63,440 nt of DNA from positions 1 through 63,440 of the forward strand of contig CAZWMG010000011.1 in the NCBI GenBank assembly GCA_964634945.1, given 5' to 3'. Position 1 is the first letter of the stretch, and the number at the start of each line of letters is the position of its first letter. The stretch comes from an uncultured Planctomycetia bacterium (GTDB lineage: Bacteria; Omnitrophota; Gorgyraeia; JABMRG01). A program made the position numbers and the translations under genes. The notes under the pieces are model-generated. The model was given only the letters and a program-made list of their open reading frames with translations, searched no databases and had not been told where the DNA came from. Below, piece by piece: positions 19,480-34,427 of this stretch.

Positions 19480-20415
19480 CTAAAGAAGCCTTTTAGCTAT
19501 TAGAGAATCTTTCATAATCTGAGTACGAAGAATATCCTCATTCTCGAATTTTCTCTCAGGCCTTATCTTCTTTACAAAACTTACCTCTATATCTTTTCCG
19601 TAAAGGTCCTTATTGATTCCGAATATATGAGCCTCTATGCTTGGGTCTTTTTCGTTAAAGGTCGGTCTTGTGCCTATATTTAATACTGACTTATATGTAG
19701 ATTTACCTACTCTGGAATATACAGCATATACGCCGCTTGGCGGTATAGCTTCATGGTGTGGGTCAATATTCGCTGTCTTAAAACCTATGATTCTTCCTCT
19801 CTTCCTGCCATGGATTACTGTACCCAATACTGAAACAGGCCTGACTAGAAGTCTTGAAGCGATGCCTAGCTCGCCCTTCTCTATGAGATGACGTATAACA
19901 CTTGAACTTATCGCAGCTGATTTATAGCTCTTTGATCTTATAATCCTTACCTGAAATCCCAGTTTCTTTGATATGCTTCTTAGGCTCGCGGCATCTTTAA
20001 GGCGCTCTCTTCCAAATGAAAACTTATCTCCGATAACAAGTCTCTTCATATTCAATTTATCCACTAATAAATCTCTAAGGAATGACTCAGCGTCTTTTTC
20101 TATAAACTTTCTATTAAAATCTATAACAACGCATAACTCAACGCCAAGTTCTTCCAGAAGCCTTAGCCGATGCTGGAGCGAACTGAGCATAAGAACTCTG
20201 CCTCTCTGCTTGAGTAGTTTAGCTGGATGAGGGTCAAAGGTAATTACTACGGGCTTAAGATTATAAGCTTTAGCTTCTTTAAGCAGCTCGGTTATAATTT
20301 TCTTATGCCCTATATGAACACCATCAAAGACACCGACAGTTATTACTGATGGCGCAAACTTGCCCTTTAACTTTTTAATACCATATACTGTCTTCATAGA
20401 TTTAGTGCCTCGCAT
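19480..20415 (-). CDS. ribF: bifunctional riboflavin kinase / FMN adenylyltransferase
   Basis: N-terminal GVFDGVHIGH nucleotidyltransferase motif and a C-terminal riboflavin-kinase domain (GFKTANI). Confidence 0.92.
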   Translation of the reverse strand: MRGTKSMKTVYGIKKLKGKFAPSVITVGVFDGVHIGHKKIITELLKEAKAYNLKPVVITFDPHPAKLLKQRGRVLMLSSLQHRLRLLEELGVELCVVIDFNRKFIEKDAESFLRDLLVDKLNMKRLVIGDKFSFGRERLKDAASLRSISKKLGFQVRIIRSKSYKSAAISSSVIRHLIEKGELGIASRLLVRPVSVLGTVIHGRKRGRIIGFKTANIDPHHEAIPPSGVYAVYSRVGKSTYKSVLNIGTRPTFNEKDPSIEAHIFGINKDLYGKDIEVSFVKKIRPERKFENEDILRTQIMKDSLIAKRLL

Positions 20416-20462
20416 AGCTATTCCTGATATTCAATTTTATGTTATAGGTTATCCACTAGGCG

Positions 20463-20542
20463 CCAAAGATATACTTATCAGGGACACTGTCCTGATTAAA
20501 AATTAAACACTGTCCCGAGCAATCTGGTAACTATTTCGGTTT
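20463..20542 (+). repeat. 80-bp direct repeat DR1 flanking structured element A
   Basis: 71 of 80 positions are identical to 20791-20870. Contains the near-perfect palindrome ATCAGGGACACTGTCCTGAT and two ACACTGTCC boxes. Confidence 0.85.
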
Positions 20543-20569
20543 TTCTATGCCGATATAACAAGCTCTTAC

Positions 20570-20747
20570 AGTTGTGCAAAATCTAAGTGGCGATTACAGC
20601 AGGGCCTTTTCATTCCGAGCGGGCAAGGTTCGCCCTGATTAGGTCCTGCGCGAGAGCGAGGAATGAAGTGGAGCAACAATTTCACGCTGGGAAATTTTTG
20701 CATCCCTGCGTAATTGGCGCTTAGATTTTTAAATCACCTCGCACAAA
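20570..20747 (+). repeat. structured G+C-rich intergenic element A (candidate ncRNA or miniature mobile element)
   Basis: Long closing helix (20578-20603 with 20704-20730, extended by ttgtgc/gcacaa). Inner helices are cattcc/ggaatg and AATTTC-ACGCTGG-GAAATT. Shares conserved blocks with 34196-34345 and 33981-34143. Confidence 0.6.
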
Positions 20748-20790
20748 CCATTCTTGATATTCAGCTTCATATTACAAGTTACCAAAAAAA

Positions 20791-20870
20791 CAAAGATATA
20801 CTTATCAGGGGCACTGTCCTGATTGAATGTAAAACACTGTCCCGAACAATTTGGTAACTGTTTCGGTCTT
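20791..20870 (+). repeat. 80-bp direct repeat DR2 flanking structured element A
   Basis: Second copy of DR1. It ends 6 nt from the truB stop codon. Confidence 0.85.
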
Positions 20871-20875
20871 TACCA

Positions 20876-21517
20876 TTAAATGTCCTTAAGCGCGATAGCA
20901 TCTTTTATACAGAACTTACCTGAGCGGATTCTTCTCAACGCCTTCATATGCGCGCCACAGCCAAGCTCTTCACCTATATCATGGCAGAGCGTCCTAATAT
21001 ATGTGCCTTTTGAACATACCACCCTGAATTCCGCTTGATCATCTTTAATACTTATAATCTCAATATCCTTTATCTCTACCTCTACAGGGTCCCTTTCCAC
21101 GACAATGCCTTTTCTGGCAAGCTTGTAGAGCCTCTTTCCGTTGTGATGTTTTGCTGATATCATAGGCGGTATCTGCTGTTGTTTTCCATGAAACGATAAG
21201 ATAGTATCTTCAATGGCGGATTTACCAATAGCCTCTGTACTGTTAGTGCTGATAACTTCGCCTGTCGCGTCCTGCGTATCAGTGACAACACCTAACTTCA
21301 TCAGACAGAGATACTCCTTATCATCCGCACAGAGACTTGCTGATAGCTTAGTAGCCTTATTCATCACAAGAACAAGGACACCTGTTGCCATCGGATCAAG
21401 TGTGCCACAATGGCCTATCTTTTTTATCTTCAGCGTCCTACGCGCAATTGCCACAACATCATGCGATGTCATGCCGGAAGGTTTGTCTATTATTATAATG
21501 TCATTCATATAAGTCAA
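20876..21517 (-). CDS. truB: tRNA pseudouridine(55) synthase TruB (short form, no PUA domain)
   Basis: KPSGMTSHDVV and the catalytic-Asp context GHCGTLDPMATGVLVL. Only 213 aa. Confidence 0.9.
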   Translation of the reverse strand: MTYMNDIIIIDKPSGMTSHDVVAIARRTLKIKKIGHCGTLDPMATGVLVLVMNKATKLSASLCADDKEYLCLMKLGVVTDTQDATGEVISTNSTEAIGKSAIEDTILSFHGKQQQIPPMISAKHHNGKRLYKLARKGIVVERDPVEVEIKDIEIISIKDDQAEFRVVCSKGTYIRTLCHDIGEELGCGAHMKALRRIRSGKFCIKDAIALKDI

Positions 21518-33827: not shown

Positions 33828-33980
33828 GCGAAAACAAAAAAGTTATTTGTAATCTCTCATCCGCCACTCTCCTCTAAGCTAAAAGTTTCGTAGCAACTCT
33901 CTCTTAGCTAGATAATCTAGGCGTGTCTTGCAAGTGCGCCCTTAATCAAGAACTGTTCTGAAAGTAAGCTTTTGAGTAAT

Positions 33981-34143
33981 GCAGCAGAACCTCTTTATTG
34001 CAAGCGAGCCCACCTGCCAGCGAGGCAAGCATGGTTCCCTGCGCTTTATTTTACAATGAAAAACAGCAGGGGGAGCGAGCAACAACGCGGAGTACAATTT
34101 TCTACGCTGGAGGAAATTGTACGTTCCTGCTCCGACTGCTGCT
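33981..34143 (+). repeat. structured element B1 (same family as A)
   Basis: Closed by GCAGCAG/CTGCTGC. Contains CAGCAGGG...GGAGCGAGCAACAA and the hairpin TACAATTTTC-TACGCTGGA-GGAAATTGTA, then TCCTGCTCC. Confidence 0.55.
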
Positions 34144-34195
34144 GAACTATCTCATAGCATCTTAAAGATAAAAAAAACAAGAGTAAAGATTGCCG

Positions 34196-34345
34196 CATGC
34201 TTTGGGTAATTGTAGCAGGGCCTTTTTGTTACGAATGGCACGGTTTTTCCACGCTTCCAAGTTTATATGAATGAGTAACAAAGTGGAGTGAAAAAAACCT
34301 CGCTGTGGTTTTTGAGCGTCCCTACGAAATTAGCCCAAAGTGTAC
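34196..34345 (+). repeat. structured element B2 (closest relative of A)
   Basis: Same block order as A: closing helix, AGCAGGGCCTTTT, helix tgttac/gtaaca, AAGTGGAG, hairpin AAAAACC-TCGCTGT-GGTTTTT, then CCCTACG. Confidence 0.6.
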
Positions 34346-34427
34346 GGGAATTAGCAACTAAATTGCTTCATAATCGATGTGCGCCATAAACCAAAACGAT
34401 TTCAAGGCCCTCTTTAATAATTGCAAC

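Follow-up and report, generated by a model that had tools for sequence, protein, structure and literature searches.

We report that the spacer between truB and ribF in an uncultured bacterium of the phylum Omnitrophota is probably a lineage-specific insertion, assembled as a mosaic of two non-coding repeat families and containing a local partial duplication. The spacer lies in a stretch of DNA of 63,440 nucleotides (nt), here called the window, which is contig C11 of assembly G000 (1.78 Mb, 31 contigs); G000 designates the source genome, and G001, G002 and so on designate related genomes. One repeat family is represented in the spacer by a structured element that we call element A (20576-20731, plus strand; covariance model score 136 bits, E = 1.6e-44), the other by a shorter box element, which is present twice. 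An initial annotation of this DNA had likened the spacer to an insertion with duplicated, att-like flanks, or to a self-contained plus-strand transcription unit antisense to the operon. Comparison with relatives supported the presence of inserted DNA, but neither the duplicated flanks nor the att sites.

We propose that A is a non-autonomous mobile element, which would be moved by an enzyme acting in trans, and that selection would preserve its folded single strand, more likely as RNA than as DNA. The insertion would have duplicated the few bases holding the truB stop codon and the ribF start codon, and both genes would have survived it for this reason; ribF would now be read from the ribosome-binding region of the inserted block itself. 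The partial duplication would have arisen locally after the insertion, as at two other loci of the genome.

The truB-ribF spacer and its empty sites

Relatives of RibF were collected from one genome per species, and the best 80 of the 496 found were kept for comparison. In the five closest ones (ribF loci L009-L013, with 81, 74, 69, 60 and 60% RibF identity), the truB stop codon and the ribF start codon overlap as ATGA (4 nt), leaving no spacer between the genes. This indicates that the whole gap, i.e. a block spanning 20398-20875 that is missing from L009-L013, is an insertion into a former stop/start overlap. Element A was present at none of the 80 ribF loci, and the repeat that flanks it was likewise not found there, with one marginal exception. 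No relative examined had an empty site holding a single copy of this repeat, the empty sites being ATGA overlaps without any repeat sequence.

At the junctions the sequence is ATTTAATGGTAAAGAC towards truB and ATCTATGAAGAC towards ribF, as compared with ATTTTATGAAGAC in the empty site. These junctions would fit a short duplication of the target in which the stop/start overlap was copied, each gene being left with its own signal. The candidate copies (gene strand) are ATGAAGAC on the ribF side (20390-20397), which is degenerate when compared with the empty sites GATATTTTATGAAGAC (L010) and GATATTTCATGAAAAC (L009), and ATGGTAAAGAC on the truB side (20866-20876), which is ambiguous. Since this truB-side candidate is degenerate and shares positions with the T-run of the second box element, we treat the target duplication at this junction as putative. 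The same junction has been colonized more than once, independently, because an order-level relative (L017, CP070655.1, 3780-4000, 5' of ribF) has it filled with a different element of about 215 nt. At each end of the latter stands a 33-nt inverted repeat (ACAGACGTTTAGAAAATCGTTCGGGAAACTGTC at one, its complement at the other), with boxes resembling the box element described below.

The two direct repeats of about 80 bp recorded in the initial annotation are indeed present (20464-20544 and 20791-20871, 72 of 81 positions identical, 89%), yet they extend further than was claimed. A second matching block (20420-20451 and 20750-20781) is 78% identical, and the optimal local alignment pairs 20397-20544 with 20722-20871 (81% identity, at 118 of 145 positions, and three small indels; BLAST E = 8e-30). 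The left copy (20397-20544, plus strand) comprises TAGATTT, a trailer of about 65 nt and box element 1 (20464-20544); the right copy (20722-20871, plus strand) comprises the last 7 nt of the closing stem (P1) of A, the trailer and box element 2 (20791-20871). The 7 nt with which the repeat begins, TAGATTT, are the end of A's own closing stem, and in the left copy they abut the ribF start. The spacer is therefore laid out as 7 nt, trailer and box, followed by a leader and the A core, followed again by 7 nt, trailer and box. Because the repeat begins in the closing stem of A and its core belongs to a separate box family, we interpret this layout as about 1.45 tandem copies of a composite unit of about 325 nt, made of A, trailer and box. 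These findings demonstrate that the "direct repeats" are a segmental duplication of 148 nt, local and partial, rather than att sites. Tandem Repeats Finder did not report the 325-nt period, of which there are only 1.45 copies at 81% identity.

Flanking repeats of this length were observed at none of the 36 other A copies tested, with the exception of tandem duplications at two loci, C28 (a plain tandem duplication with a period of about 410 and 87-98% identity) and C16 (tandem fragments). Units that contain A have thus been tandemly duplicated more than once in this genome. Between the two local copies, identity amounts to 89% in the box core and to about 68% in the trailer (estimated from the alignment), indicating either that the box core is constrained or that the parts have different histories.

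Box element 1 consists of a palindrome (ATCAGGGACACTGTCCTGAT, 20477-20496), a half-box (ACACTGTCC, 20507-20515) and a hairpin (20515-20539) followed by T5; its three related sites are centred at 20487, 20510 and 20531. Box element 2 has the palindrome ATCAGGGGCACTGTCCTGAT (20804-20823), a half-box (20834-20842) and a hairpin followed by TCTTT. The motifs listed in the initial annotation (the palindrome, a second box and a CCGA...TCGG hairpin followed by Ts) were all recovered, as was the short distance, 5-6 nt, between the end of the second repeat and the truB stop codon. A search of the genome for other copies disclosed the box core at C10:5175-5235 and a fragment at C10:33373-33421. The box family (about 80 nt) is restricted to the genus, with three copies in G001 and five in G002, both of the same genus, and none in 14 more distant genomes. 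Its consensus is made of CGGGACAnTGTCCCG, an A-rich linker, AAAACACTGTCCCGA and then GGAAACTGTTTCGG with T5, the centres of the three related sites being 23 and 21 nt apart. As is the case for A, box copies lie antisense between co-directional genes, directly past a stop codon. The hairpins that precede the T-run have folding energies of -3.0 and -4.8 kcal/mol in the spacer, reaching -8.4 in other box copies. We do not call them terminators, since they are weak and a terminator scan of 20300-21000 detected no terminator-like site.

As to the flanking genes, truB (20876-21517, minus strand; Pfam TruB_N and partial TruB_C_2, without a PUA domain) encodes 213 residues, a length that had first been considered unusually short. 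The C-terminus is intact (...DAIALKDI, with the stop codon at 20876-20878), and the nearest relative, L009, which is free of the insertion, has a TruB of 211 residues with the same Pfam domains, ending in ...DAIALEDIS. The length of the protein is therefore a trait of the clade and not the consequence of a truncation by the insertion. The other gene, ribF (19480-20415, minus strand; Pfam FAD_syn and Flavokinase), encodes a bifunctional FAD synthetase/riboflavin kinase. The alignments of its relatives begin at residue 7 of the annotated protein, which points to the ATG at 20397 as the ancestral start and to a spacer of 478 nt; judged from these alignments, this ATG is probably the true start. 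An alternative ATG at 20415 has a well-spaced AGGA but lies within the inserted block, and RibF may have gained six residues (MRGTKS) through the insertion. The spacer itself contains only chance open reading frames of 40-48 residues, in agreement with its original description as free of open reading frames.

Fold, distribution and turnover of the A family

Element A is composed of a closing stem P1 (20578-20597 with 20710-20729), a P2 stem, a P3 arm that bears a variable hairpin as well as an internal loop of double tandem G.A, and a P5 hairpin whose loop reads CGCUGGG. Its core folds with -71.8 kcal/mol on the plus strand (z = -3.6), as compared with -60.9 kcal/mol on the minus strand (z = -2.1). 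The initial annotation was thus correct in placing a structured element in the core of the spacer and, as far as the folding strand is concerned, in orienting it on the plus strand, antisense to the operon. The closest paralogue (C21:26562-26740) is 81% identical over 179 nt by BLAST, in an alignment that begins 23 nt 5' of the closing stem; the leader of this A copy (GATATAACAAGCTCTTACAGTTG, 20553-20575, plus strand) is shared with this paralogue only.

The source genome contains about 38-40 copies of A by BLAST and iterated nhmmer, and 39 by the covariance model, which was built from 20 copies. With a unit length of about 155-190 nt, they account for about 0.35% of the genome (an estimate based on 39 copies of roughly 160 nt in 1.78 Mb). 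When the model was applied to 41 related genomes, A was found in 22 (1-32 copies each) and was absent from 19. Three same-genus genomes had 12-15 copies each, while the numbers were 0-32 within the family and 5-11 within the order. Among 25 genomes belonging to other families of the class, 8 also contained copies.

In the family as a whole, P1 measures 20-28 bp and differs in sequence between copies, yet it is paired in every one of them; P2 (6 bp) is located inside it. A covarying 2-bp step in the internal loop of P3 is enclosed by G-A and A-G (GAGCG...GAGCGAG or GAAUG...UAAUGAG): columns 45-46, which pair with 84-85, have AU/UA in place of GC/CG in 10 of 20 copies, the neighbouring G and A being fixed. 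This loop would form sheared G.A pairs. Over 25 copies from 12 genomes, 95.4% of the cells were paired, and changes on both sides were found in 22 of 28 pairs; none of 500 shuffles reached the observed values, and partners that had been slid out of register were only 43-56% paired. Comparative sequence analysis therefore shows that the three-armed fold of A is maintained by compensatory changes on one strand, which is antisense to the operon at the present locus. The A-sense strand gave the more stable fold of the two strands in 30 of 31 copies, with a mean advantage of 12 kcal/mol (Wilcoxon p = 1e-6), and it is G-rich (G > C) whichever replication strand carries A. Several unpaired bases are invariant (GCAYGG, GGAG and the CGCUGGG loop), a U.G pair is conserved, and the closing stem of the subfamily found here ends in T5.

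No match at the gathering threshold was obtained with Rfam 15, either for the region or for the whole window. A permissive scan of A (E ≤ 10) yielded only weak chance matches to microRNA, snoRNA and flavi_FSE models, at 16 bits or less. We found no paper on repeats or non-coding RNAs of Omnitrophota.

Judged by eye, the A cores at C14:37158 and C5:14925 appear near-identical and their closing stems widely divergent, which suggests modular exchange, gene conversion of the core or fast compensatory change in P1. P3 often carries an additional GCCTGCC...GGCAGGC hairpin as an optional insert (e.g. C12:28010, C17:13479). This hairpin looks like a small mobile module, since it also stands alone in the truB-ribF spacer of L014 (about 2100-2175).

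Insertion polymorphism of A was observed at six loci beyond truB-ribF. Four of them are filled only in G000 (C25:9054, C5:10336, C7:78736 and C17:13479), and two sites that are filled in relatives (L090, L095) are empty or otherwise occupied in G000. At C25:9054, the flanking genes nearly abut in four relatives, the spacer being limited to a ribosome-binding stretch. In G000 they are separated by a tract of about 235 nt that contains A and lies between perfect 9-bp duplications (ATAAAGGAA), which hold the stop codon of the upstream gene and the ribosome-binding site of the downstream one.

Other sites turn over. At C21:26541-26760, three genomes of the same genus (L122, L131, L129) have a different hairpin element of about 150 nt together with only the 3' end of A (P2'/P1'/trailer), and at the C6:79530 site G001 has a similar 3' remnant of A and another hairpin element; 5'-truncated remnants of A thus recur. 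A case for purifying selection on an orthologous copy at C21:26567 failed accordingly, these three genomes displaying turnover and not conservation. In the vicinity of another copy (C7:78736), a perfect palindrome of 48 nt (CAAGACCGGTTCTTGAGCACGAGTACTCGTGCTCAAGAACCGGTCTTG, about 78586-78633, to its left) represents a third repeat family, with at least 7 near-identical copies in G001. At C7:42450-42625, where G002 has an A pair, G000 has a different element, in which GGGGACACCCCTGAG and its complement enclose about 110 nt and are followed by a T-run; the consensus promoter 3' of it (TTGAAA-16-TATAAT with TG) is conserved in G000 and G002.

The genome has an extreme strand bias, with 96% of the gene length co-oriented with the sign of the GC skew; the local skew is about +/-0.15 and correlates with the fraction of plus-strand genes at r = 0.97. 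Of 38 copies of A, 29 run antisense to the direction of the local genes (p = 0.0017), and single copies lie 5-90 nt past the upstream gene's stop codon, towards which they point. Two types were distinguished by eye in the alignment. Type I (GAGCG-GGCA) comprises 23 antisense and 2 sense copies, and type II (GAAUG-GCA) 6 antisense and 7 sense copies (Fisher p = 0.003). Six head-to-head pairs (C10:21581-21936, C10:56798-57166, C20:4602-4942, C21:15111-15453, C6:36418-36768 and C5:14511-15070) associate an antisense type I copy, beside the upstream stop codon, with a sense type II copy, beside the downstream gene. The distance between their 5' ends is mostly 16-46 nt in G000 (254 nt in one pair) and falls to 2-12 nt in relatives; conservation of the C10:56798 pair was seen in a genome of the same genus (L091). 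Apart from the copy under study, the window holds a type I copy with a GC-hairpin insert (33962-34152, 58 bits) and a type II copy (34192-34346, 129 bits), both on the plus strand. The antisense rule does not hold everywhere: sense orientation was seen for 4 of the 7 single copies that were sampled in family-level relatives. Since gene direction and replication direction coincide in G000, they cannot be separated as causes of the orientation.

Several ways in which A might move were examined and set aside. A reverse-transcriptase partner, with SINE-like (short interspersed nuclear element) retroposition, was rejected by phylogenetic profile: PF00078 is missing from G001-G003, G005, G007, G010 and G013-G015, each of which has 5-15 A copies. 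The sole reverse-transcriptase gene of G000 (347 residues) lies directly 5' of that of a repeat-rich protein of 3367 residues, within C8:7181-18374, and its IGNLTSQ motif is one that we take to be typical of diversity-generating retroelements. The formation of the closing stem from the target, by insertion into an existing hairpin, was ruled out, as empty sites contain neither arm of the stem. Folding of single-stranded DNA on the lagging-strand template, as for IS200/IS605, is disfavoured by strand logic, because the co-orientation of genes with replication would make the better-folding strand of most copies the leading-strand template.

Competing explanations

We considered the possibility that A, perhaps together with the boxes, is a plus-strand small-RNA gene with its own promoter, antisense to the operon, and that the folded RNA is its functional product, e.g. 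a ribonucleoprotein scaffold or a ribozyme. Mobility would then be secondary, and A could still be mobile as well. The strand-specific fold and the G-richness of the A-sense strand, the invariant unpaired bases and the U.G pair, the antisense bias and the T5 at the end of the closing stem all agree with this idea, as do TATAAT-like hexamers located 0-7 nt 5' of the stem in about 11 of 31 copies. Yet the spacer, when scanned, showed neither a consensus promoter nor a terminator, and no promoter at a fixed distance from A emerged when 31 copies were scanned in a position-anchored way. The members of head-to-head pairs, only 2-18 nt apart, are too close to each other to accommodate two promoters, and the sense copies of family-level relatives do not follow the orientation bias. 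On balance we hold this explanation to be doubtful. Less probable still is that A represents a new class of functional structured RNA (about 160 nt, with a three-way junction, the G.A loop and CGCUGGG) that also spreads like a mobile element. The fold would in this case serve a mobility or RNA-processing mechanism as its catalytic or protein-recruiting component, for instance as a self-cleaving or ligating RNA, or as the RNA partner of an unrecognized recombinase. Types I and II would act as a head-to-head heterotypic pair, and the composite of A, trailer and box, with its 1.45 copies in the spacer, would be the full transcription unit.

If A and the boxes were instead insulators of benefit to the host, they would sit between a stop codon and the next promoter and stop antisense transcription running head-on to replication. 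This would be consistent with the co-orientation of genes with the GC skew and with the position of the elements in G000, shortly past stop codons and pointing towards them. In L095, furthermore, some 20 nt separate the element from the -35 box of an opposite-strand consensus promoter, and it is solely on the antisense strand that the box hairpin and P1 are followed by T-runs. However, the box hairpins are weak (-3 to -8 kcal/mol) and none passed the terminator scan, the conserved junction and loops of A would be superfluous for insulation, the closest relatives manage without a spacer, and the orientation rule fails in family-level relatives; we consider an insulator role rather unlikely. Somewhat less credible is the view that the boxes are operators or an attenuator of ribF, whose three sites, spaced by 23 and 21 nt, would be recognized by a dimeric protein or would adopt alternative folds as RNA. 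The palindrome CGGGACAnTGTCCCG, the half-site and the GGAAACTGTTTC variant do lie on one face of the helix, the left half of box 1 may pair with either box to give alternative folds, and L017 has related boxes 5' of ribF. These last boxes, though, are oppositely oriented relative to ribF and form the inverted ends of the element of about 215 nt, and the box element also occurs past unrelated genes and before a tRNA gene, while it is missing at the ribF of the closest relatives. The motif GGACAnTGTCC occurs just twice in the genome (here and at one other locus), so that no box regulon is visible, and we rejected the palindrome as a regulon operator for this reason. Finally, A could have been inserted into a pre-existing single repeat, duplicating an att-like target of 80-148 nt. 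The repeat-A-repeat layout with copies 81-89% identical would be explained in this way, but we judge it highly improbable: relatives have no repeat at the empty site, the repeat contains the last 7 nt of A itself, comparable flanks are lacking at the other copies tested (tandem duplications aside), the family's one clean target duplication measures 9 bp, and the core of the repeat is an independent repeat family.

We therefore favour the insertion of a mosaic of two repeat families followed by local duplication, though a number of observations weigh against this reading. The 89% identity of the two box cores to each other is only modestly higher than their 78-86% identity to copies in other genomes, which would also accommodate two independent box insertions in place of a local duplication, and the order of events behind the repeat-A-repeat arrangement could not be reconstructed. 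A clean target duplication was seen in one of about seven comparisons of filled and empty sites; the truB-ribF candidate (ATGAAGAC versus ATGGTAAAGAC) is degenerate, and those at C5, C7 and C17 are degenerate or unclear. The inserted tracts at C25, C7 and C17 run 30-65 nt past the stem of A on each side and hence do not delimit the mobile unit. No enzyme moving A was identified, reverse transcriptase being the sole candidate family tested. Lastly, the conserved unpaired bases and the strand-specific folding suggest a function beyond selfish spread.

Comparison with known repeats

A resembles several known repeats without matching any of them. ERIC, also called IRU (RU-1), and related enterobacterial units (reviewed in PMC2229807 and PMC3184786) are non-coding imperfect palindromes of 100-170 nt. 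Like A, they have many intergenic copies in operons, are present or absent between relatives, and have no enzyme of their own identified. Unlike them, A is distributed in Omnitrophota, bears no sequence relation to them, forms a three-way junction with conserved unpaired bases in place of a simple hairpin, has a freely variable closing stem and folds clearly more strongly on one strand. BIMEs, in which REP/PU units are combined with other short motifs, and REPINs, which are mobilized by RAYT (Y1) transposases, form mosaics of small repeats, as does the present spacer (box, A, box), and their inverted doublets recall the head-to-head pairs of A. The sizes, however, do not fit (20-40 nt for REP units), and the pairs of A associate type I with type II and are no near-identical doublets.

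MITEs (miniature transposable elements with inverted repeats), such as Correia, Nezha and the QMITE of Coxiella (PMC5896051), are non-coding and measure 100-400 nt. A shares with them insertion polymorphism, inverted termini that can pair and, in one instance, a 9-bp target duplication. Yet most sites of A give no clear target duplication, and the terminal repeats of MITEs are conserved in sequence, as they are read by the transposase, while the terminal stem of A covaries. A parent insertion sequence of A was not found, and the matches of the model included no longer, gene-bearing version.

The bcr1 repeats of the Bacillus cereus group are dispersed repeats of about 155 nt, for which compensatory changes speak in favour of a structure formed by a transcribed RNA. 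Their lineage and their sequence are unrelated to those of A, and their fold is simpler. The attC sites of integrons owe their recognition to a folded single strand and not to their sequence, as may be the case for A, and, like A, they follow gene ends. In contrast to attC, A lies outside cassette arrays, among housekeeping genes, lacks R'/R'' core sites and forms a three-way junction.

The truB-ribF locus shows how two genes coupled by an ATGA overlap absorbed half a kilobase of repeat DNA, neither gene being lost, and its comparison with relatives removes the reading of the flanking repeats as att sites, which was tempting but wrong. The A family is abundant and widespread in an uncultivated phylum, is missing from Rfam, and no paper describing it was found. 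Its strand-specific fold, its invariant unpaired bases and its heterotypic head-to-head pairs exceed the needs of a simple selfish palindrome, which makes the A family a good candidate for functional study.

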